The position numbers and the translations under genes were made by a program. 57,165 nucleotides of DNA from a virus (lineage: Duplodnaviria; Caudoviricetes), in IMG/VR virus record IMGVR_UViG_3300032087_006388, positions 1 through 57,165 of that record; one strand, 5' to 3'. The notes under the pieces were generated by a model. The model did not search any database, was not told where the DNA came from, and saw only the letters and a program-made list of their open reading frames with translations. Below are positions 4,297 to 48,500 of the stretch, piece by piece; the first letter of the stretch is position 1, and every line of letters starts with the position of its first letter.

Positions 4297-4370
4297 GGGT
4301 TCTTAGCTCAGTTGGTTAGAGCATCCGACTCATAATCGGCAGGTCGAGAGTTCAAGTCTCTCAGAACCCA
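4297..4370 (+). tRNA. tRNA with CAU anticodon, most likely tRNA-Ile2 (lysidine type); CCA not encoded
   Basis: cloverleaf: GGGTTCT/AGAACCC acceptor, GCTC/GAGC D arm, loop CTCATAA, T arm GAGAG-TTCAAGT-CTCTC, discriminator A; lacks initiator features. Confidence 0.92.
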
Positions 4371-4421
4371 CTATTAAATTAAATAAATAAAAAACAAAAA
4401 TAAACTAAATAAATAAGAGTT

Positions 4422-5132: not shown

Positions 5133-5430
5133 ATAAAACCTAAAGGCATAGGGTCTGTGGATGTCGCAGAACAAAATTGCTCGGTTGCATAATTGTGTTA
5201 AAAAAATAACACTTTAGGTTTTATGACTTTGGAAGGGCTTATAATCCTTCCTGTGGGTGACCCGAATGTCTCTTCGTGTTCGAGATAAGGTATATGCTTC
5301 TTCATGGTGAAGTGCTGATGGACAAATGTCTGAGGTAGGACGACCAATCCAAGTGTAGTGCGAGTAGGTTACACTATTGAACTGATGTTCACGCCGAAAG
5401 TTGAGGGTATTCAGTAGTCCCTCCCCACAT
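5133..5430 (+). ncRNA. large structured non-coding RNA of unknown family
   Basis: no ORF in track; GC-richer than flanks; 13-bp helix 5133-5145/5212-5224, long-range helix 5252-5257/5424-5429, many local hairpins; own promoter and terminator. Confidence 0.75.
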
Positions 5431-5459
5431 CTATTTTATTCCGTGGTTTATCCCCTCCT

Positions 5460-6925: not shown

Positions 6926-7807
6926 ATGATTAACCCTCAAACAAAAGGAATAAAAATGAATGTATCAAGTTGTGAATCAGTAAGTGAAGTATTAACCGCA
7001 ATCGGAGCAGAGAATGATTACTCTCTTCGTCCGATTCATGATTTCCCAACCTATCGTGGAGTATTCGATGGCAACGATAATCCTGTCGCTATTGTAAACA
7101 AAACATATAAATTAATGCAACCTGCTAAAGCATTTAGTTATGTAAATGATCTTCGTGAAGAATTAGACATGAAGTTTGATACTGCAGGTTTTACCAAAGG
7201 TGGTCGCAGAATGTATCTTACCTTACGCAAGGAAAATGCTATTGAGATTGACCCTAAAGTTGGCGACACTATGGATGAATTGATTTATTTTTGGACATCA
7301 TTCGATGGTTCTATTCAGCATACTTTAAACAAAATGTTAGAAAGATTGGTCTGCACAAATGGTATGGTAGCTAAAGATGTTCAATCTAGTGTAAAGGTTA
7401 AACATTCTTCTCAAATGGAGTCTAAGTTAGATTCTTATATTTCTAGTGAGATTGAAAACATTAAAGCAACCTACGAAGAAACTAAACAAATTATTTATAG
7501 TTTAGCAGATACTAAGGTTTCTAAGTCTCAAGCTAAGGAAACTATCAATCGCTTATTCGCAGGTGAGAGCAAGAGAGCAGAGAAGACTAGAGAAGATATT
7601 CTTCAGAGATTTACCAATGGTATGGGTAACAGAGGTGAAACTGCTTGGGATTTGCTCAATGGTATTACCGAATACCAAAATCATGGCAAGACATTTCGCT
7701 CAACTGATGGTTCTAGCGCTTCAGAGAATAGATTGACTTCTTTAACTATGGGTCAAGACTCTAACTTGATGCACAGAGTTTGGAGCGAGTTAGTTAGTTT
7801 AAATTAA
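6926..7807 (+). CDS. DUF932-family (phage/plasmid-like) protein, copy 1
   Basis: YKLMQP, TAGFTKGGRR, TSFDGS, RLVCTNG, VKHS, TAWDLLNGITEY; start may be 6956 (SD AAGGA). Confidence 0.85.
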   Translation: MINPQTKGIKMNVSSCESVSEVLTAIGAENDYSLRPIHDFPTYRGVFDGNDNPVAIVNKTYKLMQPAKAFSYVNDLREELDMKFDTAGFTKGGRRMYLTLRKENAIEIDPKVGDTMDELIYFWTSFDGSIQHTLNKMLERLVCTNGMVAKDVQSSVKVKHSSQMESKLDSYISSEIENIKATYEETKQIIYSLADTKVSKSQAKETINRLFAGESKRAEKTREDILQRFTNGMGNRGETAWDLLNGITEYQNHGKTFRSTDGSSASENRLTSLTMGQDSNLMHRVWSELVSLN

Positions 7808-7818
7808 TTTGTTTGGGG

Positions 7819-8070
7819 TTATTGTTGGTACCCCCCCTCCTTCGGGAGGGGGGTTTTTTTGTTTCTGTTTAAATAACGCTCACGCAGGTAATATGGCCAA
7901 AAGAAATAGAAAGCAACATCATCACCATGAAATAAAGCGCGTTCTAATTCAATAGCATACAACTCTTCCCAATTTTTATCTTCTTCTTTAAATAAAGTAT
8001 CACTAGGTTTTAATTTATTTGAATTATTACAAGAGCAAATAAAAAATAATAAAATAAGTAATAACCTCAC
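7819..8070 (-). CDS. putative lipoprotein
   Basis: MRLLLILLFFICSC signal/lipobox; GTGTA motif 9 nt upstream of GTG start. Confidence 0.7.
   Translation of the reverse strand: MRLLLILLFFICSCNNSNKLKPSDTLFKEEDKNWEELYAIELERALFHGDDVAFYFFWPYYLRERYLNRNKKTPLPKEGGYQQ
7830..7860 (+). terminator. intrinsic terminator
   Basis: C-rich/G-rich stem with TTCG loop plus T7. Confidence 0.9.
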
Positions 8071-8263
8071 AAATGTATTTACACTAAATAAAATTTCACA
8101 AATTATAATAAATTGTATAAATAAAACTTGATACCCTTTGGTTAAAATAGTCTAGTACATAACAGGTTGGTATCGGGTGGGTAAGTGGGAATTATATTTT
8201 TTTAAACTTTTAGTTTGACATCAAATAAACTATATGGTTTATTGGTATCAGTTCTTTAATATA

Positions 8264-8366
8264 TGCCAACGTGTTCAACCTTAACTGCAATTAAGGGGAG
8301 ATGAGAGAGGTTTGCTTTGCAGAGTTAACTATCCTCTTGCAGGTTCGACTCCTGCCACGTATGGCA
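8264..8366 (+). ncRNA. tRNA-like small RNA (non-canonical)
   Basis: terminal helix TGCCAACGTG/CACGT-A-TGGCA, canonical T arm GCAGG-TTCGACT-CCTGC, two internal hairpins, own promoter (TTGACA 8215). Confidence 0.7.
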
Positions 8367-8429
8367 CGCCTTTTAAAAAAAATTAAAATTTTATTTGACA
8401 CCGATTAAACTATATGCTTTATTAGGATT

Positions 8430-8600
8430 ATGAACAGAAGAAAGATAACTCTACATCACACTAGCGCCGAGGATTATAAGAAGAGTTTTGAGGAACTTGC
8501 CGATGATCCAAATTTACTTTTAGCACATAATTATGCAGGAAAGTATTACATCATCACTTTTTACGACAGATGGTATTGCGGAAAGTTAATTGAAAATTAA
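8430..8600 (+). CDS. leaderless small protein, 56 aa (not in ORF track)
   Basis: MNRRKITLHH...GKLIEN; ATG 35 nt from TTGACA(8395). Confidence 0.7.
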   Translation: MNRRKITLHHTSAEDYKKSFEELADDPNLLLAHNYAGKYYIITFYDRWYCGKLIEN

Positions 8601-8636
8601 TTTGACATCACCTTAACTATATGGTTTATTAGTATT

Positions 8637-8831
8637 ATGAACAAAACAATATACTACAAAGAAAAAAACAACTTCGGCACAACTCACTTCTATATTGTAT
8701 CCGAGCATAAAGATGCAATTAAGAGATTGACAGGTCGTTTAACTATAACTTCAGAAGATGCAAAGGCATTGCAGGAATTAGGTTTCAACTTTCAGTTGCA
8801 ACAATCTTTTGCAAAATTACTTGACAACTAA
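8637..8831 (+). CDS. leaderless hypothetical protein
   Basis: 64 aa; ATG 35 nt from TTGACA(8602). Confidence 0.8.
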   Translation: MNKTIYYKEKNNFGTTHFYIVSEHKDAIKRLTGRLTITSEDAKALQELGFNFQLQQSFAKLLDN

Positions 8832-8855
8832 AAACAACTCAACTATATTATTATC

Positions 8856-9170
8856 ATGTACCAAACAATATCACAGTGGGATTTCGTTAGAGCATTTACA
8901 GAAATGAACAGAGAAAGCAATTTCTCCGAAGAAGGCAGGATTGCTTTGTTTGATTTCTTGGAAGAGGTTAATCCCGATTCCGAATTAGATGTTATCGCAA
9001 TTTGTTGCGATTTTACAGAGTATTCTAATTTAAATGAATTAAAGCAAGAATATTCTCATTTATTAGAAGATGAAGATTTAAGCGATGACGATGAAGTGCT
9101 TGATTTCTTCAGAGATGAAACTGTCGTGCTAGAATTGAGCAATGGCGGGATAATAATTCAACAGTTTTAA
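8856..9170 (+). CDS. leaderless acidic phage protein (ELDVIAICCDF motif)
   Basis: 104 aa; ATG 35 nt from TTGACA(8821). Confidence 0.85.
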   Translation: MYQTISQWDFVRAFTEMNRESNFSEEGRIALFDFLEEVNPDSELDVIAICCDFTEYSNLNELKQEYSHLLEDEDLSDDDEVLDFFRDETVVLELSNGGIIIQQF

Positions 9171-9206
9171 ATAGAATAAAATAATATCATACATATTATA
9201 AATAAT

Positions 9207-9449
9207 ATGAAAGATTTAGATTTAGCTCTTAAATATATACAATATAGATTAAAAGAAAACGAAGAAGTAATAATAAATAAACAAGGCATACAAGTTAATT
9301 TAATTAAAGCGAAAAATAGTATGCCACCAATGGATGCAGAAGATGCTAGAGACATGATTAATGGATTAATGGAAGATGCAGACAGAGGAATTCCAAGAGG
9401 TGTGGACGGCATAGATGTCGAGATGTATCAAAGGATGTACGAAGTTTAG
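9207..9449 (+). CDS. hypothetical protein
   Basis: 80 aa, co-oriented with region. Confidence 0.65.
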   Translation: MKDLDLALKYIQYRLKENEEVIINKQGIQVNLIKAKNSMPPMDAEDARDMINGLMEDADRGIPRGVDGIDVEMYQRMYEV

Positions 9450-9466
9450 TTGTAGTTGGTGTTCAT

Positions 9467-9505
9467 CGGAGTTTTAGAAGTTTTCTCCGTTATCAAAAAA
9501 ACTTC
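9467..9505 (+). ncRNA. predicted H-type pseudoknot (3' UTR element)
   Basis: CGGAG/CTCCG stem 1; GAAGTTTT/AAAACTTC stem 2. Confidence 0.5.
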
Positions 9506-9548
9506 GATTTTTATTTGACTCGAGTTGTTTCTTATGGTTATGTAAGGC

Positions 9549-9737
9549 ATGACAACATTACAAGACATTAAAAATTATCTCGTTATTTACTCCGATGGAG
9601 AAAATGAATACTCAACAAAAATCAAAGCAGTTTCCAAAGAAGATGCTTATTTAAAATTTGATCCATGGGAAGAGTTTGAAATTGTACAGGTAACTAAAAT
9701 AGTTACTTTAGAAGAAGATTTAAATTTTATTAAATAG
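9549..9737 (+). CDS. leaderless hypothetical protein
   Basis: 62 aa; ATG 34 nt from TTGACT(9515). Confidence 0.75.
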   Translation: MTTLQDIKNYLVIYSDGENEYSTKIKAVSKEDAYLKFDPWEEFEIVQVTKIVTLEEDLNFIK

Positions 9738-9749
9738 GAGGGAAATAAA

Positions 9750-9941
9750 ATGATTAAAATAATTAGAAATAATTTTGATAATTGGATAGATATTAGAATA
9801 TTTGATAAATTGATTGACAATGCAAGAACAGAAGCACAGGCAATTGCGCTAGCGCAGGAAATTCAATTAAAACAAAGGGAAGAAGGAAACTTATTAGCTA
9901 TTTCAAACAGATTAAAAAAAAGTAAAAAAAAGTTTGCATGA
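9750..9941 (+). CDS. hypothetical protein
   Basis: 63 aa, SD AGGAGG. Confidence 0.75.
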   Translation: MIKIIRNNFDNWIDIRIFDKLIDNARTEAQAIALAQEIQLKQREEGNLLAISNRLKKSKKKFA

Positions 9942-9968
9942 TATCTATTTATGCGCGATAGTATGATT

Positions 9969-10694
9969 ATGAACAACAAAACAATCAACTTATTATCCTC
10001 TCCAAGCAAGATGCCTTGCGTTGGTTTCAATCTTCCTGCATTAAAATTTTGTCCTGCCGCGACTATCTTATTAAAGAAAGCAAAAGATAATTTAGATAAA
10101 TTAATTTGTTCAAGTTGCTATGCCTGCAAAGGATTTTATCAATTTTCTAACACAAAACAATCGTTGCAAAACAAAGCGGATTTTGTTTTATCTAGTTTAA
10201 GACAAGACAACGGCAAAACTTTTGTTAAAGCAATGGCAAGCCAAATCTTTAAAAAGTATTATAACAAGGACGGAACACGCAAGACATTAAAGAATATAAA
10301 CACAAAACTTTTTCGTGTTCATGATAGTGGTGACTTGTTTAGTGTTGCATATATCAAAGCTTGGATAAACATATGCAAAATTTTTCCTACTATTCGCTTT
10401 TGGTTTCCTACTAGGGAATGGATTAGAGAAAGCCAATTGGATGCATTAAAAGAATTAGCAAGTTTGCCCAATGTATCACTTAAACCAAGCGCGTTAGAAA
10501 TTGATCAGCCTGCACCAAAGATTGAAGGTTTAGATTCAGGAACAGCAGTTTATAGTTGCGCAGAAAAAGCCAAACAGGACGGGCATTTTGTTTGTCCTGC
10601 CACAGCGACAGATGATCATACTTGCGCAGGTAACAATTGTCAAAATTGCTTTATCAAAAATTTCAAAAAACCTATAGCCTATCTTGCCCACTAA
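9969..10694 (+). CDS. GP88-like (gene product 88) Cys-rich phage protein
   Basis: SKMP..FNLPA..CP, CSSCYA, FRVHDSGD, FWFPTRE, C-terminal CPA..C..C..C; ORF from 9951, leaderless ATG 9969. Confidence 0.8.
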   Translation: MNNKTINLLSSPSKMPCVGFNLPALKFCPAATILLKKAKDNLDKLICSSCYACKGFYQFSNTKQSLQNKADFVLSSLRQDNGKTFVKAMASQIFKKYYNKDGTRKTLKNINTKLFRVHDSGDLFSVAYIKAWINICKIFPTIRFWFPTREWIRESQLDALKELASLPNVSLKPSALEIDQPAPKIEGLDSGTAVYSCAEKAKQDGHFVCPATATDDHTCAGNNCQNCFIKNFKKPIAYLAH

Positions 10695-13033: not shown

Positions 13034-13288
13034 ATGAGAAACAGCACCACCACCTACCACGAAACACTTCACACCTTAGTTCAAGACGTACAGGAGAATT
13101 ACCTGGATCTGAACAGCGCAACCAGTGAAGAGTTTGCAAATCACTTCTGGCAACCAGTTGGATATAACGAGACAGTGCGCGAGTCTTTCAAGTTGGATTC
13201 CATAAAGGGAAAGGGCACACGTCGTTATTTACAAGTTGTGATTTATCGATTTGAAACAGGAAGATACGAACTAGTTTGCTACTCCTAA
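13034..13288 (+). CDS. leaderless phage protein (YRxETGRYEL motif)
   Basis: 84 aa; ATG 35 nt from TTGCAA(12999). Confidence 0.8.
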   Translation: MRNSTTTYHETLHTLVQDVQENYLDLNSATSEEFANHFWQPVGYNETVRESFKLDSIKGKGTRRYLQVVIYRFETGRYELVCYS

Positions 13289-13338
13289 GGGGTAGCAAAC
13301 GTTTAAATTAAATAAAATAAAATAGGAGATAAAAGAAA

Positions 13339-13509
13339 ATGACAAGGAAACACTTCACCATCGTAGCAAAAGAATTAAACTTCTCATTGCGTAATGCGCC
13401 TAACAGCGCTCCAATCATTCGGGATCTCGCCACAGCGCTAGCAAACGAGTTCGAGCAATTAAATCCAAACTTTAACAGGTCGAAATTCCTAGCAGTTGCG
13501 CTAGGATAA
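13339..13509 (+). CDS. small phage protein, 56 aa, MTRK..NPxFxxxKF type (not in ORF track)
   Basis: SD AGGAG; MTRKHFTIVA...NPNFNRSKFLAVALG. Confidence 0.75.
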   Translation: MTRKHFTIVAKELNFSLRNAPNSAPIIRDLATALANEFEQLNPNFNRSKFLAVALG

Positions 13510-13561
13510 AAAAAGTAAAAAAAGATTTGCAATTTAAGCAAAAGAATGAGATCTTAATTTT

Positions 13562-13726
13562 ATGTTTGAAAACGACGTAGACCTCACACCAACTTGGGAG
13601 TTCGCTGTAAAGATTTACATCGAAGTTCTCGAAAATGCAAACGCCTCTTTTGAGGGAAAACAAGCTGCGCGGGAGGAGCTTTTAAAGCTTGCGCAACTTG
13701 TAGACAGGCAAAACAAGGAAGCCTGA
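13562..13726 (+). CDS. leaderless small protein, 54 aa (not in ORF track)
   Basis: MFENDVDLTPTW...AREELLKLAQLVD; ATG 35 nt from TTGCAA(13527); terminator follows. Confidence 0.75.
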   Translation: MFENDVDLTPTWEFAVKIYIEVLENANASFEGKQAAREELLKLAQLVDRQNKEA

Positions 13727-13732
13727 AATTTC

Positions 13733-13761
13733 AGCCCCCTAGAAATAGGGGGCTTTTTTTT
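13733..13761 (+). terminator. intrinsic terminator
   Basis: AGCCCCCT/AGGGGGCT plus T run. Confidence 0.9.
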
Positions 13762-13895
13762 ACCTACAAATAGAAATAATTTATTTAAATAGAAATAAAA
13801 AATAGAAATAAAAATAATTTATTGAAATAGAAATAGTAAAGATCTTATTTTAATTTATTTATTTAATTTGTATATTTAGTTTATTTATAGCGGCT

Positions 13896-14598: not shown

Positions 14599-15534
14599 AT
14601 GTACCTAATCAATCCAACTGAAGTATCAAACCTTGCCAACGTAGTACAAACTACCGCACGGGAATTCAAATTGCATGACGTTAGCGAATGTGATGACGTA
14701 AACGACGTATTGAATCACTTGAACGTCGGGCGCTATTCTAAAGTAGATATTCCACACGTTTGCAAGGGCTATTCTGTTATTAAAGACGATTTCGGGAATC
14801 CTTTAAGTATCGTTCAAGATACTTATGATTTGCTCCAACCACAAAGGGCTTTTGCTTTCATGGACTCACTACGTGAGCAAGTGGGCTTTACATATAGCAA
14901 AGCGGGCTTCTTACAGAATGGACGTCAGCTTTTCATTCAAGGCAAACTTGGCGATTTCGAAGTACCAACCACTAGCGCAAGACGTAAGGGCGATATACTG
15001 AACAAAATCATCACCGCAAAAACTTCATTTGATGGAAGTATTGCAACCACAATCGCCATTGAAATCTTAAGAGTTTGGTGTGACAATGGTTGCGCATCAT
15101 GGGAAAACGATTCCATAATTGGCAAGGTAAAGCATACCAAGAATCAAACCGCAAGAATGAATCTTGCCCTTTCCCATGCAACGGGCTTGCGTCAAGTGGT
15201 TCAAGATTTGGAAAACGATATTTCCACACTTTCCAATGTACAAATGACGGGCGAACAATTCGAGCAGATTGCCAATCGTGTATTTGCGGGCGATTCGACA
15301 AGGGCAGAAAATCAGCGCGATGCGGTAAAGGCTCAATTTGCAAACGAGCGTTTAGGCGCATTTGGAAGTACCGCGTGGGATGCAATGAATGCTTTCACCG
15401 CATGGGCGACTCATGAGCGCACGTCTCGCAATACAGAACAAACCACACGTGAAGAGAATCACTTTCGCGCACAATCCGATTCTGCTTTTCCTCGCAAGGT
15501 TCGCAAGGCAATTCAAGAGGTAATGGCGGTATGA
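14599..15534 (+). CDS. DUF932-family protein, copy 2
   Basis: YDLLQP, KAGFLQNGR, TSFDGS, RVWCDNG, VKHT, TAWDAMNAFT. Confidence 0.85.
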   Translation: MYLINPTEVSNLANVVQTTAREFKLHDVSECDDVNDVLNHLNVGRYSKVDIPHVCKGYSVIKDDFGNPLSIVQDTYDLLQPQRAFAFMDSLREQVGFTYSKAGFLQNGRQLFIQGKLGDFEVPTTSARRKGDILNKIITAKTSFDGSIATTIAIEILRVWCDNGCASWENDSIIGKVKHTKNQTARMNLALSHATGLRQVVQDLENDISTLSNVQMTGEQFEQIANRVFAGDSTRAENQRDAVKAQFANERLGAFGSTAWDAMNAFTAWATHERTSRNTEQTTREENHFRAQSDSAFPRKVRKAIQEVMAV

Positions 15535-15587
15535 TACTACTTGCCATAATAGCGGGCGCGTTCCTTATCAGTTTGACGTTGCCATAA
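15531..15587 (+). CDS. 18-aa hydrophobic peptide (twin of 10745..10801)
   Basis: MILLAIIAGAFLISLTLP; ATGA-coupled to DUF932 stop. Confidence 0.55.
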   Translation: MILLAIIAGAFLISLTLP

Positions 15588-15595
15588 TCTAAACC

Positions 15596-15621
15596 AAGCG
15601 CCCGAAAGGGCGCTTTTTTTT
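15596..15621 (+). terminator. intrinsic terminator
   Basis: AAGCGCCC-GAAA-GGGCGCTT plus T run. Confidence 0.9.
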
Positions 15622-15725
15622 GCGCTTAATCAAATACAAAAAACATTTGCAGGAAATACTTAAATAAAACAAATACTTACATACATACATATACATATAT
15701 ATACCAACAACACCAACAAAGCGGT

Positions 15726-36509: not shown

Positions 36510-39500
36510 ATGAATCAAGAATTAAAATCCAATCAACTAATAAAACGACAGCAAGCATTGTTTGATCAAATTATTGCAAAATATGGAGATCAGTTTCATT
36601 CTATATGTTTAGATAAAGCTCAAAAAGGAAGCAGTATAGAAAATTGTGTGGTTTTTGGCTTGCCCAAGAAAAAGCCATTGTCGGAACTTAAAGATTCAGA
36701 AGTTTTACCTACGGAAATAGATGTTCCAGGAATTGGAGTAATGAAGGTGGATGTCCAAGAAACCAGAATAGCTACACTAGATGGAAATTTTATAGATGGA
36801 TATTTAAATCAAGAGATCAATAGTTCGATAGATCAAGCCCAAGAGCAAGCAAGTTTATCAAAAAATTATCCACATTATCTATTGGATGGATTTCTTGATC
36901 CATCATCAGGGGTTAATTATGAAGCATCAATAGAGACAATGGGGCATTCTGAAGAAAGTCCCACCCCAATTGAAAACTGGAAATATGCTGAAGTAAACCA
37001 AACAGACGATGGGTCTTTATTATGGACTCAAATTTATACAAGATGTGCATCTGAAAGCTCAAGAGATCTCTCTCCCCAAAATCAAAAAAATGATTTTATA
37101 AAAAGCGGTATAGTGATTAGCGCTGAAGGCATGGGAGGGGCCATAGGAACCCTTGGTGCATTAGTTGTTGATAAAGATGATAATTCTTTATGTGCATTAA
37201 CTAATGGACATGTCGTTTCAAAAAATTTATTTGTAACCAAAAAAAGAGTTGGAGAATACTCAGAAAATATATTGGGCAAAAAAGTTTATCACGGAGACCT
37301 AGTTCAGCAAAATCGAGATGCATGGACCGAGGACGACCAGATTGGAATCATAAAAAAATCAGTGCCCCTAGGTATTGTTGGGACAGATACTAGCGCAGAT
37401 CTTTTTACAGCGGAAGATGTTTCATGTGACGCCGCATTGATTGCAATAAAAGCATCAAAGGTAAATGTTGATTCATGGAAGCTTGCGGGAGATGATGCGA
37501 ATGCATTAATGAACCAAGCTGCAAAATTTATGGATGCAGAAGATTTTTCATTTTTCCTCGAAGATAGCATGGCATATAACTACATCTCAGACATTGGGGG
37601 AGGAAAAAAAGATGAGCCTCTAATGGTTTTCTCTGGAAGAAGTTCTGGGTTTCATAATAGTCACGAAAACAACAACAGAATTAGGAGTCTTGGGCCTGCA
37701 TATGGAGTTAAAGTTGGTTATTCACAAGGAGGGGTAACGAAATATTTATGGATAAGGGGAGCATTTGTTATTGCAGATCAAGATTGGGATTTTAGATATG
37801 CAGACCATGTTGATGGTGCTGAAGGGGATCCACAAATTTCTCAAGGTTCTTTATTTTGCCAGAATACAATAATGGCGGGAGATTCGGGATCTGTAATTTA
37901 TGCATATACAAATACATTTGCAAAAAATAGCGACGGCTCTCCTCACAAAATAGCTGTGCCTCAAAACGAAGCTGTATTAAATGAATTGAATCGAACTGCA
38001 GATGCAAATGGAAAATGGACAAAAACATTAACCGAGGTTATGGAAGATTTGGGAATAAACTCGGTAGTATCACACATTTATTATGATTTTGGACCACACA
38101 TTGCTCAAAAATTAGATACAAGCTTATTGTCCGAAGATAATGTTCTAAAAGCTTTGCAGGGTCAAACACTCGACCCAAATGGAGATAATGGAACCGAGAA
38201 ACGTTGGAGAATGGCTGGACAGGCTTTTGCAGCAGAGATTGTTACACAAGACATTATTAATGAGGAAGGCGAGTCCGAGACGATCCAATACTCTACAAGA
38301 GGATTTTGCCAACCAATGCACAGAATCGCCGATCTTTTAAATATTAAAGAATGGGACGGAGGTTTAGATAATATAAATTACAATATAAGAGAAGACAACT
38401 CTTATACAGAAAGTTTGGTTTTTTCAAAGGGGCAAAGTGATGTATACAATATATCTTTAAATGAGAAAAATTATTATCAAGCGGGAGGTATTACAAAAGC
38501 AGAAGGTAGGGAATACACTGCAGCTATAGAAGCAAAAACAAATTTAACAAAAAGCAATTATCCATTCGATGAAACCATGCCTCCATTGTCAGAATGGATG
38601 ACATTTGATAGTTTTGATATAGAAGTCGCAGAGGGGGGATCCGTTCAGTCTGGACTAAATAATCCCAGAAAGTACCCAATTTGGCTAAAATTAAATAATC
38701 TATCTATTGATTTATCAAAGCTGCCAGAAGAAGTTTTGAGAATGCCCACGGGGGCCATGCATATGGATGCCGTATTAATGGATGCAAATGCAGTATTCAA
38801 TGTAGAGGATTGGTACACCGATACAAAATTATCAGGAATGCCCGACCAGGGCCTATTTTATCATCAAGAAAATTCTACTACAAAAGCCTATGCTTCTTGG
38901 AGAATTTTTTCTCGTGCGGGAGAGATAGCATCCAAAGATACCGTAAAGAAAAGTTACCCTTTATACTTAAAAGAGTTTGATGGAAAAACTAAATTCAAAG
39001 GTTATCAAATAAAATTTCCATTAGGGGGCGGAATTGGATATGATTTCGACTTAGATCAAACTTCTCAAACTTATAGTTTTAACAAAGAGAAAACAGAACT
39101 TTCGGCATATTTTGAGTATTTACCATGGACTGTTTCTGGAAACTCTATTTCATTTAATGCTACACCTAACGACATTGAGTCTTGGCTAGGAACCAAGAGT
39201 CTGAAATTAGTTTTTGTCTTGTGGAAAAACGATACATTTGATGTGGGAAATTCTACAAGAATAGGAAGAAGTGTAAATTTCAGCAGACAAACCCAATCAT
39301 ACCTGATACAAACTACAGCAATTGCTGATGATATAACTTCGGCAGATGTGGTATCTTATACTCCTGGAATACAAGAATCAGATGACAAATTAAGCAGGTA
39401 TGAATCCTTAGATCAAGCCCAAAGAAAGTTAAGAATTTTATTCGATTCAGATCATTTAGGTGGCCCAAATCCGCATAAAGGAATTAAAGACTCAAACGGT

Positions 39501-42500
39501 TTGAGTGTTGGCAATAAATTTAAGTGTCAACAAATAAAATTAAGCCAAAGTGCCAGCAAGTATACATACAAATTTGAGACAACTGCAATAGCGACAAAAG
39601 GCTTTCAGGAGTTAATGCCTGGAGCTGTATTAACAATAGATTGGAGTGATGCTCCAGATCATCCAGTTGGAATCAGTACAACTCCTGATGGAACGCACGG
39701 AGGCGGAGATTTATATAGCGAAGTAGAAATAGATTTGGCAACAAAAACTACAAAATGTTATTTTAAGATGGCTGATACTTTGGGCGGAGAATACTATGTT
39801 CCAGATTCAGCAGCTCCTGGGCTTAAGGAATTTAGGACGACAACAAAGCTAGATTTTTATGTATATTGCACAAGTCATTCAGGAATGGGTTTTCCATTAC
39901 AATTTATAGATATTCGAGATGACCACAAAGAGCTATATATAAACTCTTGGCTACCTAAGAAAATATTCTTGCCAATTAATCATGTGGGCCCAGGCGGAGC
40001 AACAATATTATGGAATTCATTAGATAGAACTAGTGATGTTTTACCTGTTGTGAATTTAGAGGGCAACACAAAATTTAGTGCAAGACAAATGTATTGGACT
40101 GCAACAGAACTTACTGGAGCCTCAACATACAATGGATGGAGGCATCCATATAATCCATGGAGAGATGATTGGACCCTGGAATCTAGCGATGCCAATTTAG
40201 CAAAATGCCTTAATTACGGAGACTGTGAAGATTTACAACAAGCACAAAGAACTACTTATGTAGATGAGGCAGAGATTGGAACTGATGATGCATACAGCAA
40301 TCAAGAAAAGTTTAATTTGCACGGTCAAGGCTGGGAGATGAATGATAAAGTCAATGATTTGACTTATTCTTTAGACAATCAATGGATTATACTTGAAGAA
40401 AATCAAGTTCAAAGAGGTGATGTTTTTGAGGTTGTTGTACTTGGAGATGTCAGAAGTTTTGGATTGCATGAAGATTGGTTCAATGAAAATAATGAATTAA
40501 AATCTTTTTCTAGAAATAAAGATAAATGGGCGAAAAAATATTTAGCCGCATATAAAAGCTCATTTTCTTTTGGAATCAAAAACATTTCCTATCCATCATG
40601 GATTGACTGTAAATGGTATCATACTTTTGACGGATCTTCGCTTGATACAATATCTGGTCTCAATAAGCCGATTAGTAATCCAAGCGTAATGGTTAATACA
40701 TTTTCAAATTTAGTTAATGTTCTAGACCATACAAGTTTCAATCTTGCATTTAGTGATTTTTCCAATGCTCAAATTATGGAACAAATTTTTGCAAACTCAA
40801 GAATAAGCTCAGATTTGCAAAAAATTGTTTTTGATAGTAATTATCAAATCACAAATGGTATAGCAGAAAATTTGGCAGAATTAGCTGAGAGGTCTGGATG
40901 TCAATTGGAAATAAAACAAGCAAATTTAGCTAAATATAATGCTAGATTTAATGAATTTGCAATAGTAGAAAGAGCACTAGATCCTGCAGATACAACAGTT
41001 GTTTTCGCGGAAAGTTTAGTTGATTTTGCGGTGGGAGTAGAAATTAAATTTTTAAGAGACAGAACCTTTGGAAACGGTGATACAATAACAGCGGGAACAG
41101 TTATAGAAATATCTGGATACACCGAAGGAAATCTTAACTTTCAGATAAATTATCTAGATGTTATTAGAGATATCTCTACTTCTGAGTTAGATGATTTATA
41201 TGAGTTTGTGAACGGAGATAAGCCTGTATTATATTTTAATGGAGGCAGTCTGCCATCTGTGGATTTACAACAAAGGCTTCTAGCCGCTGGAGTCGTGGCT
41301 CATATTGGAAGGTCTAGTTCTTTGGGTAAGATAAAAGATCTTACGAAATATTTTGCAGGTAAAAGTGTAAACGGTCAAGATTTAAATTATTTAATAGGAT
41401 TAATTAATCAGAGAGGAATAGATCCGAACGCTAATTTCACAAAATTTTGTTATAATGCAAATATATCTAATGCAGATTTCTCAAGTATAACATTAGAATC
41501 TCCTGATTTTACAAAAATGTTTCAAGGAAGTATTATTTCTGGTTTGAAGTTACCTACAGTACTTAACGGAGCGTATTCTGTAAAAGATATGTTTGAGTCT
41601 TCAACTATAACAGGAACTTTAGATTTGGATGCCATTGTTGATGTAGGAACTGAAAGTGTAGAGAGTTGTTTTTACAATACAACAACATCTACTTCAATTG
41701 ATATAACATCTTGGAAATTCAGCGAAATTAAATTGTTTGAATACATGGATGAGTTCATTTTAAATTCTTATCTACACGACTTTAAAGTATCACAAACTTC
41801 CCAATCCATTATTTTAAATTCTGCTGATTTTTGGTTTAGAAGTTTAAACATAACAGACGTAAGAAAAGTTGGGCGATCCGAATACAGAACTTACGAAGAT
41901 ACATCAAACGGGGTTTATATTCCTTATGAAGATGATACTGAATGGAATAATTTCAATAGAATTGGAGTAGAACCAGGAGAAGAAGACTTTTCGGATCCAG
42001 ACTGGACATGGAAGCCAGTAGGAAAAATTAAAAATAGTTGGTTTGAGATGGATCATTCTCCAGATTATTCCACATGGTCATGGAGGAATGATGGAGGCCA
42101 AGATCTTTATGACGGCGACGGCCAATGGTATAATGGAAAATTTTTAACGAATTTAACCTTTGACGATGTAACTACAGATTATGATAGTGCAATCAGAGGC
42201 TTTGGCAGATTTGACTTTGAGGTAGATGAGGTTGAATGGAATCATCTTAATGGATCACCCACAAATACGTTTGCTACTAGATCTGCCCATCTACGTTTAA
42301 ATTGGGAAACTAATAATTTTGAAATAGTTAATGGATACAGAGATATATTGACTATAATTTCTGATGCAGGAAATTACACAGGAGGAATTAATGGGAATTT
42401 TTCGGCAACTCCTGATTTATTTCCAAGCGGAAAAGGTGTTCAAAAGTATATCACACAAACAAACGGGCTAGAAGTTTTTACATCTCATATAAAACTGGAA

Positions 42501-45500
42501 CTCACCTTGGATGTTTATAGATTGCACTTTTTTGTTCATTTAGGAAAATATTATAATAGTGAATCAAAATTATTTAGTTATGATAAATATAAAGGAGTGA
42601 ATGGAAAATTCCCCATGGTTCATTTTTACTTTGAAAAACAAGTAAACGATTTTACCGAATCCGAGAAATCAGAAATATATAATTATATAGAAACATTAAA
42701 TATAAAAGATTATGCAGTTTCTCCAACAAATCCACGTTATAATATTACTAACAAGAAATATGCGAATGAATCTCCATTTTTATTTGGACCAAAAATCGCA
42801 GATAAATATCTCACAATTTCAGAGCAATATTCAAATACAGGAGGAACTGGAACCCCAGCAAGATTCTACAGTAAAAATGTAAGCTTTGGGGAAGGTGGTA
42901 GTGGAGATGTTGAAGTGTTAGATGTTAGGGCTAAATTTTACCCTTATAATTTATTGTCAGAAAATAAATTGACTGAAAATAATGAGCTTCACATCCCCGT
43001 TCCATTTGTTGAGTATAACAGCTGGAATCATGGAACGCAAAATTCATATGCTTATCCATTGATGCTTAGATGGGGTGGTGTAGAAGAAGATGTTCATCTA
43101 AGATTTCTAGGAAGTTACATCCAGTCAATGGGGAATCATCCAATGTACGACCTTTCGATTAGAAATAAAAATGTAAAGTCCGAGCCTGCTCAAATATATG
43201 TTATCGCTGATGGTACCGAAGTTCTTGGTGAAACATATTATATTACAAATGGATCATCAGTTCAAGCTATAGAATTAGAAGAGCAAAATATTTTAATATT
43301 AGTATTGGGTATTGAAATATTAGATGTAAATAGTATAGAGTCGAACCAAATCACACAAAGATTAGAGGCGTGGGTTGATAGTATGATCACAATCAATCAG
43401 CCTTATCCAGATATGGACCCAAGTTATTATGTGATTGATTATTCAGGGCTAGAGACTGCTCTACAAGACGCTGTAAGTTCAACAAATAACTTTGAAGTTT
43501 TTATTCCTGGATGGACTGTAGATCCTCAACAAGTATTTTTAACTCTTTTTTATCCAAGATGGAATACTGATTTTAATAAAGGCACAAGTGCATTAAGCAG
43601 CTTGAGTTTGTATAAAGACGCGGATCGAACCATTCCAGCAAATAGCGACGGTGGTTATGTATACGCAGGAAACGGCCAACATTTGCTTAATTTGTATTAC
43701 AAATGGTCTTATTCTTACGACACTCAAGATTTCTTGAGACCTGGGTCATTGATAGTGCTAGACCCTTCAGAAACTGATATTACATATACAACAAACACTA
43801 CAAATAATTCTACCACAACTATTACTCCAAGCAATATATGCATGGTTGTTAAAGTGGATAAAAATAATATTTATTTTGTAAAAACTGGAGATACAGTAAA
43901 TGTAAGCAATGATTCTATCAATTATGGCGTGCATGATAACAACGATTTTTCTGGATTTGCCTTCAGGGCTCCAAATATAGGAATGTCTCCTACTGTCGAT
44001 TTGATAGTTACTGGTGGAACAACAGAAGAGCCAACATATGCAAAGCATTCAGAATACCCTTCATTGTCAAAGTCGCTGAGAAACACGACTTTCCACAAAA
44101 TAACTCCTAGGATAATGCATACAGACCAATCATGGACTTCTGTAACAAACAATGACTGGGAAGAAAACAAAGTATACTTTACAGCCCAGAAGACTAATGG
44201 AGAAACTTTAGATGGAACAATAATATTGCATCCAATAAGAGAAGGAGAAGATGAGGGCAAGCTTATCGATCAATATCCAATTGGAGAAACTGAAAAATTG
44301 TTTGGTGTAAAGGGAACATATGCAATTTATATTGACAGCAATGATTTTCAAGATACCAATTTTTATAAAGCAGAATTGGAATCTGAATATGAATCAGTAT
44401 TGGATATTCCAACAATTGATTCGAGCAAATACGATGAATATCCTGTCCCAAAATCAAACTTGGGGCATTACAAAGGAGCTGTAGGAAGCAAATGGGTTAT
44501 CTTGAATTACGATCCATTAGAAGATGGTTTTACAAAAATTCGAGGAAAATATACCAACGGAAACAATGAGGTTTTAAGCACCGCTCCTTTTCAAAAATTC
44601 AATCATATAATAGGATTAGTCCCTAATGGAGAGTATAATAATCCATATGATCCAGGCAAAGACTCTCTTAGAGATAGTCTCGATAGTGACTTCGATGGAT
44701 ATCCAGACATAATTGACCCAGCACCTTTTGATCAAAGTATACCAGGAAATACAATTATTACTGTAGAGTATCACGATGCAACTGAGTACCAAAATGCATA
44801 TGCTAGCTTTGGTCTTGGGTCGCATAAAGGAGATTTTGGATCGTCAGGTAGACTGAGTTCAGATGTGCAAACAATAAATATGTTCAATGACGACCCTTCC
44901 AATATTACACAATTGTATAATTGGAACGCGGGTGCAAATCAAGTCACAATAGCATTGGTTGCGGGCGATGTTGAAATTGAAGATGATTGGCAAAATCATG
45001 ATTTGCCAGTTACATACCCTTGGACCTCGCCAACTTATACTCAAACCCATGATGGATTTGGTATACCAGATGGAGTTTTAATTAATTGGGGGGATGGGCA
45101 GGTAACATCCGCTCATGTAAACAATGCAGATTCCTATGTAGAAGAGACTAAAGAATTACTGGGGTATTCTCAGAATTTTTATTCAGGAAGTGTGCCTCAA
45201 GATCAATGGAAAAACCTTGAGCCAGGAACATATCGAATATATTTCTTTAAACACACATATCTAGATGCGGGCGACAAGACTGTGAATATAACAGGTCCCT
45301 TAAAGCATTTTACAATAATGGCTGATGATATCGGACAAATGGGTGTGGACGAGAGAGATAGGTCCAGAAATCTAGGACTTGTTTCGAAAAGCTTGCTGAG
45401 TAACAGCGAATATTTAAATTGGACAGAATCTAATTTTAGAATAAAAGGGTTTAGTGTCGTTGGTGGAGCAGATACATTCACTTTAGGATCTCCTTTCTAT

Positions 45501-48500
45501 TCTCTATTTCCAAGAGATTTCTTTGATGATGATAGGGATGAAGTTATCGAAGCGCATATTGATGGGATTTCATGGATAAAAGAACCTATTTTATACCAAC
45601 ACGCGAGACCAAGTGCATGGACACTTCCTTCGGATATAACTTTTAGATCTTATGTGTGGGAAACGAATTGGGGCGAAAATAGTCAAGAGGGTGTTTCTAA
45701 TGATTATATAGATCAAACATGGCATGCTAATAATTATAAATTTTCATCATATTTCATAAATGACCTGGGAGTACCTGCAGGGCTAAATAACAATCAATGG
45801 ACACAAGGATTTTATGAGGGAGAATTTTTCTGGAGCTCATTTTCCAGCCCCATCACTCCTTTGGGTATAATGACATCTTTGTTAAGTACTTATCCTTACG
45901 GATCGGAATCTGATAGGTATTCCAATAGCGATTTGCAGTCAATATGGGTAAAGAATCCAAACCATCTACCACAAAGCGACTTTTTTGATTGGGATGAAAC
46001 TAGTCCTGTAGTTGCAGGAGATATGATTGGATGTTTGGGCCAGGAACTTAGCTTGACACCCCAAATATTGATTGATAATATTTCTGACAATAACGAAGAA
46101 TTTTTAGAAAAAATTAAAGATGCTGTGGGCAGTGGCAATACTCACAATTTAGAAACTGAGTTCGGATATCTTTATTATGAGATGCACATTGACAGAAACA
46201 ACAAAGCTCCAGATGGAATTATCAGAGATGATACTGGACAAATTGCAGACACAATGACAGCATATGGGGTCTATCAGTCCAGGGTCCACCAGCCACCTAC
46301 AGAAACAGATTTTATTGATTTCGATGGAACACAAACAGATGGCACATACCTAGCCTATGGAGATTGGCAATTTACTGGAAATATGCAATACGAATATGAC
46401 GTGAGAGGGTCCACCAAAACATTAAAATCTGCGGATCATAAAAATGATAGATTTAGGGTACTATGGTTGCCATCTATAGGAGACCAAGAAAAAATAACAG
46501 TTACATTAACTGGAGACGGAACCTCAACTGTAGCCACTCTTTTTATAGCAGCGGCTGCTAGTCAAGTCTATCAAAATAGTAATATTCAATCAACCGTTCC
46601 ATCTGAAATTAGCGGTCATAACCCTTTGTTTAATGTTCCTATAATATATTCTGAAATTATACTTCCTTCTGGTTGGACATGGGAATTGGAATTAAAGATA
46701 GATTTATACTTGAATGAAAAGCATATGTTCAAGACTAGAAAATTAATTAATGGAAATCATGTAGAAACCAAAACATGTCCATCTGAAACTTGGTTGGTGG
46801 TAGAAAGAAATGATACTGAAATTACAGTAGTTCCAAACAATCTAAAATCTATATTCAATAGAGAGCAAGATGAACTTTTAAATGATTCTTTACACCAAAG
46901 AGTAATGACTCAAATTGATGGAGCTAATTCTACTGGATTTATAGGAAAAGATTTATATTATGATGTATTACTAGACCATGAAAAAGCAAGCAATGCAGAT
47001 TACGGTCATGCTACTGACGGATCACTTGTTCTAAATCATGATATATCAAGCTTGCCTTTGGTTAAACTTTTGGGTTCTAATAATCATACTGATTTCAGGC
47101 AATGGAACAGAAATTCATCTAATCCAATATCGAGTTTTGTCTCATCGAATGACAGTCCAGTATTATTAAATAATGTTCATTATCTGGAAGCTACAGGAAC
47201 TGCATTAACGAATTCGTATGGTCAAACTAGAACTACGGTAACTAGAGATTCGGAACTTGCCGTATTGGCTTGGAATAAATTGAATGCTAATGGAAATGTT
47301 CCTAGCAGCATTAGCTATACCTTTGAAGACATTGGATATGCAAATAGCACAACATATCAAGCTGGAGAGCATCCATTAAATGAAAAATTTGAGGGTTTGA
47401 TCAGGAATGACCTTAATTTGGGAAAAAAGATTATAAAATACCATAATTATGGTAATCCTCACACGGGATTTGGTGTATTTTTTAATCACACAAGAAAAGA
47501 GATTGTTGATTGGAGCTGGGGAAGTTACTCGGCGCAAAATAAACATATAGATGGAACCACTGGTCATATTTCACCTTTGATGTTTTCTGATGTAGGAATG
47601 TTTGAACCTGTTTTAACAAGCTACCATACTGGAGGATTGAGAAATAGATTTGTGCCGAATTCCAGAGTTTACAATGAAATTCAAAACCCATTTTTTAATC
47701 CTTCAGCATTATTAAAAGAGCAAAATATTTTAAAAAGAGTTGAAATTGCCGTTCCTTCATTCTCATGGACAGATCCAGAAAGCGAGTGGGCCGAACCAAG
47801 CGCGTCTTTAAAATTTCTTGATGTTATTGATAGATATAAGGGCGGCGAAGAAGGGGTGATGAAATTACTTGAGGATTCTCAGTTAGCTGGCGTTTTTAAT
47901 GGTGACGGTCATTATGCTACGAGTCGTTTTGGAAGTACTCATCAATTTAGATTTAAGGATTTAATTAAAAGCGAATCCATCCAAAACAAACCTCAATTAA
48001 TTAAAATTACTACCATCCAAGAAGGTGGTAGTTATGGAAGATCTCAATTAGCTATGCCAGTTGGATTAATAGAAGGTGGAAGCAAGATTGTTTTAGGTTT
48101 AATTACACAAGACACAGGCAATAGCCTCTATTTTTACGATTCTGTTCAGGGCTCATACCATTTATACAACAGCTTAAACTCATTAACTCCGAAAGTATCT
48201 CATAGAAATTGGCTAGTTTATCATTCAATGTATTACAATAGAATCGAAGGAATTGCTGCATTCGCTGTATTTAATGTTTCTGACAGGGGGACCGTTTGGG
48301 ACGTTTATAAAGAAGATTTGTACGAATGGAATCTAAAATATACTAATTCTAAAAACCCACTCAAGTTAAAATTAAAATTTTCCGAAAGAGGGTCATTTTG
48401 GGAAAAAACGAAGCCAAAACATCATGATCCAGACATTGTAAACACAAATCAAACCAGAAAATATTTTGGATTAGATTGTTCTCAGCCGATGAAAGTTTTG

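Follow-up and report, generated by a model that had tools for sequence, protein, structure and literature searches.

What would a phage gain from an RNA that carries the T arm of a transfer RNA (tRNA) but neither an anticodon arm nor an encoded CCA end? The question is raised by a small-RNA gene at positions 8250-8374 (plus strand) of the window, the whole stretch of DNA analysed here, which is a 57-kb fragment (57,165 nucleotides) of the uncultured virus record IMGVR_UViG_3300032087_006388, a marine phage, with a CheckV completeness of 39% and a G+C content of about 30-33%. An earlier note on this DNA had described a tRNA-like RNA at this place, and every structural element in that description was confirmed on reading the sequence. 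The results presented below point to a conserved gene that probably stems from the lineage of transfer-messenger RNA (tmRNA), and they lead us to propose, tentatively, that its product is a mimic of tmRNA or tRNA that cannot be charged with an amino acid.

Structure and conservation of the element

The core of the element comprises 101 nt (window 8265-8365, plus strand, as are all features of the gene). Its two ends pair in a helix, P1, between the 5′ strand GCCAACGTG (8265-8273) and the 3′ strand CACGT-A-TGGC (8356-8365), from which A8361 is bulged; the nine pairs are all invariant in the seven distinct cores found (position 8265 is A in one further contig, from run X1). The earlier description of ten pairs with a bulged A holds for the bulge, which is A in six distinct cores and C in one (L061), while for the length it has to be shortened to the nine pairs of all copies, since the tenth, T8264-A8366, is kept in 7 of the 12 distinct flank versions. 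Junction J1/2 (TTCAA, 8274-8278, alignment columns 10-14), with an invariant TTC and two variable last bases, leads to the hairpin P2 at the position of a D arm, CCTTAA-CTGCAA-TTAAGG (8279-8296), which has 6 bp and an invariant loop (8285-8290). Beyond junction J2/3 (GGAGAT, 8297-8302, alignment columns 33-38, of which column 35 alone varies), whose unpaired G residues could dock on the T loop, extends the long irregular arm P3 (8303-8338), as given by minimum free energy (MFE) folding and RNAalifold, with the apical loop segment TTGCAG at 8317-8322; it is closed by GAGAG/CTCTT or AGAGG/CCTCT, two registers being possible. P3 runs with a linker of 0 nt into the T arm, GCAGG-TTCGACT-CCTGC (8339-8355), invariant in the seven distinct cores, and the T arm in turn adjoins the 3′ strand of P1 directly, with no intervening base. 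The 3′ tail (8366-8374) consists of five variable bases and a run of three to five T, ACGCC-TTTT in the window, and encodes no CCA; the end CGCC-TTTT without CCA reported earlier was read correctly for this copy, and the 5 nt that separate the end helix from the U-run appear across the copies as ACGCC, TCTCT, TTGCC, ACGCT and ACTCT.

A four-way junction is given both by the single-sequence MFE fold and by RNAalifold on the seven distinct homologues. The folding energy of -33.9 kcal/mol (z = -1.93) is weak evidence when taken by itself, 10 of 200 shuffles folding equally well, and the G+C content of the core, 48.5% vs 32.8% for the window, places it in the top 1.5% of 101-nt windows. The folding models show a tRNA-shaped RNA with a genuine T arm, in which the long arm takes the position that the anticodon arm has in a tRNA, or helix 2 in a tmRNA. 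A long-range helix between CTGCAA and TTGCAG, extended by TTAA/TTAA, was set aside, as it fits the window copy alone and is disfavoured by the substitutions at columns 61-62 and by the covariation at pair 18/29.

Five related records (G000-G004) were examined, two of them only 39% complete; G001 is the closest relative and G004 is complete. Exact-pattern scans detected the element in 13 metagenome contigs and three related viral ones, of which one breaks off within the copy, its range being a small clade of four viral contigs, window included, and 13 metagenome contigs. These supplied 16 full copies, with seven distinct 101-nt cores and 12 distinct versions when the flanks are included, besides the copy cut by the contig end; the metagenome locus L054, whose core and flanks are the same as those of the viral L032, was treated with it as one record. 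By a DUF932-family protein encoded next to the element, with identities of 97%, 71%, 69% and 69%, the element-bearing contigs are related to the phage of the window. A covariance model of the seven cores picked up the element once per record in four of the five related records and did not find it in G004. Other patterns were less useful: the strands of the end helix with a free interior matched 13 contigs, 11 of them by chance in unrelated, mostly GC-rich sequence, the P3 loop combined with the T loop matched unrelated class II tRNAs, and the 5′ half matched the three known viral contigs and no others. A search of sequencing runs listed none of RNA with the element. In a run labelled metatranscriptomic, which probably consists of DNA (word share 0.07), one 817-nt contig covers 8226-8378 with 12 differences; it is silent on ends and expression.

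Mean pairwise diversity over 14 loci was 0.033 in the core, 0.010 in the leader that precedes it, 0.131 in the promoter region and 0.18-0.25 further upstream, while downstream it rose from 0.215 in the 15 bases after the helix to 0.287 and then 0.450; the core is 4-14 times less diverse than its flanks. Judged by this distribution of substitutions, the element is a gene under purifying selection and not a decayed relic; the lack of conserved homologues that the earlier note had associated with a decayed pseudogene is contradicted by 16 full copies with so uniform a core. Across the seven cores the named structure, loop-loop contact included, consists of standard pairs in 259 of 259 cells. The variable columns number 11: four lie in pairs, all of which keep pairing, and seven at unpaired positions, which belong to junctions, internal loops and the bulge. 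Pair 18/29 reads U-A in three cores, U-G in three and C-G in one, pairs 39/74 (G-U or A-U) and 50/61 (G-U or G-C) vary on one side, and columns 48, 49 and 62 of the P3 internal loop vary freely. When the two complementary loops are taken as pairing, Fisher's test gives p = 0.0074 for the avoidance of paired positions by variable columns.

These complementary loops are CUGCAA in P2 and UUGCAG in P3, exact complements over 6 nt; both are invariant in the seven distinct cores, as are all three hairpin loops. Complementarity of at least 6 nt between loops was reached in 6 of 2000 shuffles folded likewise, and the energy of the duplex is -6.1 kcal/mol; the match was noticed post hoc, such matches come more easily since UGCA is self-complementary, and the contact shows no covariation. 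In the modelled fold the two loops may either lock the side arms together or form a second contact surface.

At the site that the element occupies in its relatives, G004 carries a different RNA of 104 nt (L035 7513-7616 of 7513-7625, z = -2.76). It has in common with the element a leader-like start, a 10-bp end helix, GTGTTCA and GGGGAGA, and has no T loop; it is a singleton that the covariance model of the element misses. After it, L035 7631-7960 contains a tRNA-shaped RNA, with a 46-nt insert replacing the anticodon loop, and then more GC-rich structured sequence. ARAGORN and Rfam made no call for either stretch (7513-7625 and 7631-7960).

Promoter-like cassette and leader

Upstream of the core lies a promoter-like cassette (8215-8243) composed of TTGACA (8215-8220), a 17-nt spacer with TG at 8235-8236 and the -10-like hexamer TTTATT (8238-8243). 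Its pattern is matched four times in the window, vs 0.18 expected, a number reached by none of 100 shuffles, and it repeats at 8394 and 8601, each time before a small open reading frame (ORF). In an alignment of 14 loci TTGAC(A/G) and ACTATATGGTTTATTG are constant throughout and the intervening bases are not; the conserved block sets in precisely at the -35 element, upstream of which the window differs from the other copies. The RNA had been described as standing behind its own promoter, and this holds in so far as the cassette appears to be a repeated promoter-like unit, not a textbook promoter. In the cassettes at 8394-8440, 8601-8640 and 8821-8858 the -10-like hexamer is 6-7 nt from the ATG of a small ORF, and mRNAs behind such close-set cassettes may be leaderless or nearly so.

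Between cassette and core stands the 15-nt leader AGTTCTTTAATATAT (8250-8264), the most conserved segment of the whole gene. We infer from the sequence both its transcription start, near A8250, and its processing site, directly before the end helix.

Probable kinship with tmRNA

The leader is also where the resemblance to tmRNA is most direct. The variant AGTTCTTTAAAATTTTAT, found in the L052 and L062 copies of the element, is the leader of the tmRNA gene of G001 in 20 of 20 bases, a score that none of 300 shuffles reached. The leader 19-mer occurs in 33 viral contigs (L077-L109) and in 28 of them adjoins a tmRNA-type 5′ end (GGGGATG in 18, GGGCGTG in 5, GGGGGTG in 4, GGGCGCG in 1), the other five being tRNA-Val in two cases and something else in three. 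ARAGORN called a tmRNA at six of these contigs, the Rfam tmRNA model gave 102-113 bits in all four that were tested of those missed by ARAGORN, and 3′ ends terminated by ACCA were read in three; the remaining assignments rest on near-identical first 70 nt. Element and GGGCGTG- or GGGGGTG-type phage tmRNAs also have CGTGTTCT in common at the 5′ junction. The element thus has the 5′ flank typical of phage tmRNA genes, a feature that lies outside any published family definition. In the window the only tRNA or tmRNA called by ARAGORN is a tRNA-Met (4297-4371), whose leader differs from that of the element.

The leader deserves attention beyond this locus. At 18-19 nt (AGTTCTTTAAAATTTTAT; for example L083 6011-6028, plus strand) it precedes tmRNAs of at least four sequence types, often just past a tRNA gene, and it is more conserved than the tmRNAs behind it; a processing signal and part of a promoter are candidate roles.

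The other end of the molecule leads to the same relatives. A 22-mer comprising the T arm and CACGT was present in 15 viral contigs, where it belongs to two copies of the element, one tRNA-Asn, one 85-nt RNA called as tRNA-Arg and 11 RNAs resembling a small tmRNA; among 185,579 cellular species genomes it occurred in one. The 11 RNAs, 47-117 nt long, come from low-GC marine viral contigs (L007-L010 and L012-L018) and follow one plan: GGGCGUG, A(A/U)AUGGUUAG, a variable helix, AAC, the T arm of the element and CACGUCC-A, with G3:U70 present and the tag absent. All five loci tested match positions 1-374 of the Rfam tmRNA model with about 300 nt deleted; the scores, 22-40 bits for six elements (E from 5e-5 to 8e-13), do not reach the gathering score of 47, and ARAGORN makes no calls among these RNAs except one "tRNA-???". 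On their sequences they are tag-less mini-tmRNAs. Examples are L010 3729-3834 (minus strand) and L018, which has two copies (123-210 and 436-511), and the central helix covaries between L010 and L018. When phage isolate records were compared with the element and with one of the mini-tmRNAs, the only matches were at the level of the T arm, to ordinary tRNAs.

The lone cellular match of the 22-mer lies in a cyanobacterial metagenome-assembled genome (L064 7700-7760, minus strand). There the T arm and the acceptor 3′ strand are followed, after about 10 nt, by the complementary GCGCGTG with a G:U at the third pair, the circularly permuted order of two-piece tmRNA genes; ARAGORN and Rfam made no call.

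Full one-piece tmRNAs are present in two of the related records, scoring 124 bits in G001 (L066 1501-1911, minus strand) and 148 bits in G004 (L065 1501-1864, plus strand). The tags predicted for them by ARAGORN, AREEYDNLVQFEQAEELEMVA and ANRYMATSHVSKLTRLKASRLL, do not end in the usual LAA. The words ACTGCAA and GGAGATG, which the element has in common with tmRNA, were judged not significant, the second being limited to the window copy.

Leader and ends together suggest that the element probably descends from the tmRNA lineage, not from tRNAs; a role as a mimic is also probable. The pointer to tmRNA that the earlier note had given in passing became in this way the key lead, through the leader and through the 22 nt of T arm and acceptor held in common with the tag-less mini-tmRNAs. 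We place the element outside RF00023 and regard it as a derived form of tag-less tmRNA.

Comparison with known RNA classes

The failure of ARAGORN anticipated by the earlier note did occur, as the program calls neither a tRNA nor a tmRNA at the element, and the Rfam scan that it had recommended returned no match in 8100-8500, either at the gathering score or at E ≤ 10; the canonical tRNA call that would have spoken for an ordinary tRNA did not appear. The tRNA model RF00005 matched ordinary tRNAs and nothing else in the five related records, and genome-wide both the tRNA and the tmRNA models miss the element at E ≤ 0.001.

With tRNA the element has in common a UUCGACU T loop, a closing G-C, a four-way junction and a hairpin at the D position. 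Its T arm is indeed that of a tRNA, with a 5-bp stem, a UUCRANY-type loop closed by the G53-C61 pair and stacking on an acceptor-like helix, whereas the rest departs from the class: the acceptor stem has 9 bp and a bulge instead of 7 bp, the tail is variable instead of an encoded CCA, the variable loop is 0 nt long, and no 5-bp stem with a 7-nt anticodon loop exists. The G18 G19 of the D loop, which in a tRNA dock on the T loop, are likewise missing, the loop at that position being CUGCAA, and unpaired G occurs only in the junction past the hairpin.

Full tmRNA (RF00023; G001, G004 and the 28 leader-bearing contigs) resembles the element in the leader, CGTGTTCT, the type of T arm and its direct stacking on the end helix. 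The element differs from it by lacking pseudoknots, a tag frame, G3:U70 and ACCA, and in its length, about 101 nt vs 360-440 nt. The third pair counted from the T arm is A8269-U8360 (pair 5/96), A-U in all seven distinct cores and not G3:U70. The unpaired analogue of the D loop in tmRNA is replaced by a hairpin, and P3 runs into the T arm with 0 nt, as helix 2 would, yet is a closed hairpin arm without sequence similarity to helix 2. As a tag frame, GCU UUG CAG AG(U/C) UAA was the sole candidate, and it was rejected, its stop being lost in 2 of the 7 distinct cores; the tag-less forms need no such frame.

Closer in size are the tag-less forms. The mini-tmRNAs of marine phages have the identical 22 nt and the same order of end helix, 5′ junction and variable central arm adjoining the T arm; unlike the element, they keep GGGCGUG/CACGUCC, G3:U70, the discriminator A, the D-loop analogue A(A/U)AUGGUUAG and the GAC...AAC junction. 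Their leaders are unrelated to that of the element, and the phage stretches examined around them gave one protein match with the window. The tag-less tmRNA of mycobacteriophage DS6A and the tmRNAs without coding sequence of some organelles, as described in PMC4131195 and PMC11915505, resemble the element in the stack of acceptor and T arm, in a short helix for the mRNA part and in the absence of a tag, and the DS6A form is, like the element, encoded by a phage. The element differs from the DS6A form by A-U at the G3:U70 position, the 9-bp bulged helix, the missing CCA, the D-position hairpin and the second long arm, a comparison made by description.

Bacterial Y RNAs had been offered as a further parallel. 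YrlA is a non-coding RNA with a T-arm mimic and with known phage examples; its two ends form the Ro-binding stem, the tRNA-like module being distal. In the element, in contrast, the ends form the acceptor-like helix, no Rfam match was obtained, and the five related records, two of them only 39% complete, hold no TROVE/Rsr gene, so that the comparison fails on topology, on Rfam and on the absent Ro/Rsr gene.

Proposed function as a non-chargeable mimic

Sequence and analogy lead us to a tentative proposal: an independently transcribed small-RNA gene whose product acts as a non-chargeable tmRNA/tRNA mimic, or decoy, with SmpB as a candidate target. The RNA would be made early in infection. Precursors of tmRNA are cut by RNase P at the 5′ end, and the transcript of the element would probably be cut in the same way, at U8264/G8265. 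Because of the A-U at the G3:U70-equivalent position alanyl-tRNA synthetase should not charge the RNA, which could then be a structural mimic occupying a host factor that recognizes the acceptor/T-arm elbow of tmRNA or tRNA. The best-precedented target would be SmpB, in which case trans-translation might be tuned or blocked; this choice of target, made by analogy, is less secure than the descent from tmRNA. No SmpB, CCA-adding enzyme or peptidyl-tRNA hydrolase is encoded in the five related records, and for SmpB this absence neither helps nor hurts the mimic.

The precedent comes from DS6A, for which PMC4131195 describes a "TLD only" tmRNA, that is, a tRNA-like domain (TLD) without the tag and with little beyond it. 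According to the same text, a DS6A-like molecule strongly inhibits tmRNA whether chargeable or not, perhaps by titration of SmpB (PMC4131195), an inhibition independent of charging, and a second source reports that in E. coli the cell's own tmRNA is inhibited by the DS6A form (PMC11915505). The earlier suggestion of a tRNA decoy gains plausibility from this precedent as far as the decoy role is concerned, while no result discriminates among the targets then listed; EF-Tu, synthetases and RelA are unlikely partners of an RNA with no CCA and no G3:U70.

Several findings weigh against the proposal. G001, the closest relative, carries the element together with an intact tmRNA, a gene that a plain inhibitor of trans-translation would seem to oppose. 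Both the D-loop analogue and the GAC/GGAC junction of the tmRNA models are absent, so that binding of SmpB is not implied by the sequence. The tmRNA covariance model, which gives 102-148 bits for full tmRNAs, has no match in 8100-8500 even at E ≤ 10, and the tRNA model misses the element at the same limit. Compared with 14 distinct phage tmRNAs over their first 75 nt, the interior shows no similarity detectable by nhmmer, and local alignment of the 5′ part of the window copy does no better than shuffles (35 of 300), which leaves the kinship resting on leader and ends only. The -10-like hexamer of the cassette has T in place of the conserved A at position 2, and for this reason a generic sigma-70 scan omits the cassette. 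Finally, homologue covariation, one of the checks suggested at the outset, is too thin: all four variable paired columns keep pairing as said, but with just seven close sequences the controls fall short of significance, the observed value being reached in 270 of 500 shuffles and Fisher's test on the nested pairs by themselves giving p = 0.10.

Alternative explanations

To a more elaborate scheme we give a modest chance. A tmRNA gene would have been duplicated and remodelled into a non-chargeable RNA with a 6-bp kissing lock, forming a ribosome-rescue switch that works either as a sponge for SmpB or another factor or through CUGCAA pairing. As a sponge, the RNA would shut down or redirect host trans-translation, and the phage tmRNA with its unusual tag would take over; by pairing, its invariant loop would bind the conserved CUGCAA segment of tmRNA.

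The RNA could instead be directed at host nucleases or toxins whose substrates are tRNA or tmRNA, such as anticodon nucleases or other tRNA-targeting defences, and serve them as a decoy or competing substrate, its hairpin loops presenting an anticodon-like U-GCA-R; this appears doubtful to us. Such a role suits the surroundings of the RNA gene, an early region where small takeover-type genes each have a promoter cassette to themselves, and it suits the two invariant side loops, in which UGCA follows U/C-U and precedes a purine. Phages are known to deploy RNAs derived from tRNA or tmRNA against nucleases, as in the anti-defence case of AcrIIIA1 with t(m)RNA fragments (PMC11662646). Against it, neither loop has 7 nt on a 5-bp stem, and both ARAGORN and the tRNA model reject the element; the anticodon nucleases listed by the earlier note would find no 7-nt anticodon loop to cut. 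No defence system or nuclease is linked to the element at any locus, and the tmRNA-type leader and ends would be left unexplained.

Of much the same low probability is a base-pairing regulator, in which the loop UUGCAG, CUGCAA or both would kiss a target RNA and the tRNA-like body would serve stability and processing. The phage tmRNA itself is a candidate target: its conserved segment CACUGCAAG recurs as the P2 loop and is complementary to that of P3, and ACTGCAAG occurs in the tmRNAs of G001 and G004 and in several other leader-bearing tmRNAs. The invariance of the two 6-nt loops in all seven distinct cores, amid stems and junctions that vary, agrees with such pairing, as does the rarity of their complementarity among shuffles (6 of 2000) and the fact that the single-stranded leader is the most conserved part. 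Six base pairs are nonetheless a weak target signal, the self-complementarity of UGCA inflates the match, and the leader also stands on tmRNA genes, where it is presumably removed.

Two further explanations are very improbable. The first is a decaying tmRNA or tRNA pseudogene, or a phage attachment-site half that reproduces the 3′ terminus of a tmRNA or tRNA gene of the host. PMC4131195 and PMC9004378 describe tmRNA genes as common integration sites, with fragments in phages, and G3:U70, CCA and tag have indeed been lost. A relic, however, would hardly combine a core whose diversity is 4-14 times below that of the flanks with the retention of both end-helix strands, with substitutions that preserve pairing and with its own promoter cassette. 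As for an attachment site, the 22-mer in 1 of 185,579 cellular species genomes means that no matching host gene was seen, and no integrase was noticed among the proteins scanned, a scan that covered only 9 + 10 ORFs.

The second is a working translation adaptor, a chargeable tag-less tmRNA or an odd tRNA that would receive CCA after trimming and enter ribosomes. The canonical T arm stacked on the end helix agrees with this, as does the leader junction, whose U(-1)/G(+1) is the combination that RNase P prefers, and the short frame GCU UUG CAG AG(U/C) UAA is open in 5 of the 7 distinct cores. The A-U at the G3:U70 position, a 9-bp bulged helix where 7 bp are expected, a variable 3′ tail without CCA and the loss of the stop of the short frame in the other two cores all speak against it, as do the failure of the tRNA and tmRNA models to find the element and the lack of a CCA-adding enzyme in the related records.

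Least likely of all is a structured terminator or attenuator governing read-through in cis into the downstream small genes, for although a U-run follows the end helix and the next gene begins about 60 nt downstream, that run lies five variable bases past the helix, a terminator scan omits the site, the downstream genes have their own copy of the cassette, and neither the T loop nor the tmRNA leader would have a role there.

Genomic setting

The proposed mimic is encoded among proteins of the DUF932, GP88, SET and L5 gp82 families. The window contains a terminase gene and many small plus-strand ORFs within its first 16 kb; the terminase is less than 30% identical to that of any phage isolate, and the interval 7000-10000 has no near match among phage isolate records.

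Upstream of the RNA gene an inverted repeat was observed (window 8128-8190, GATACC...GGTATC), with a counterpart in G004 (L035 6960-7030, CGACATC...GATGTCG). In both, the repeat is followed by TCGGG(T/A)GGG(T/C)AAGTGGG, possibly a further conserved element; the inverted repeat is absent from the same place in the other copies of the element.

Other features of the window lie farther from the RNA gene. A manA RNA motif (RF01745) at 5231-5433 (plus strand) scores 49.1 bits (E = 1.2e-11), short of the gathering score of 55.2, and stands upstream of a gene of the Phage_L5_gp82 family; the relatives L033-L035 have the motif above threshold at the matching position. Further GC-rich islands, with at least 48.5% G+C per 101 nt, interrupt the AT-rich early region at 13085-13764 and 15222-15626. 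A single ORF of 4873 aa occupies 36510-51131 (plus strand); PHROG gave no match for the neighbouring ORFs of 847, 670 and 543 aa.

Implications

One phage and a few organelles are known to have tag-less tmRNA-like molecules, and to these the element adds a conserved derivative that, by a known rule, should not be charged. It goes one step further than the DS6A case, with two added arms and a likely loop-loop lock, and it exists beside an intact tmRNA in at least one relative, under strong purifying selection. Two patterns that can be mined in other data emerge alongside it and may be of equal value, namely the family of mini-tmRNAs in marine phages and the 18-19-nt leader common to many phage tmRNA genes.

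Why phages carry tmRNA genes, found in about 2% of those sequenced, is treated as an open question in PMC9004378. If the less probable ribosome-rescue switch were to prove true, the element would represent the first known case of a natural regulator evolved from tmRNA, and would offer a handle on that question. If instead the RNA is a decoy for SmpB or for another factor that handles tRNA or tmRNA, it would represent a simple natural off-switch for ribosome rescue and a test case for the evolution of structured RNA mimics from functional RNAs.

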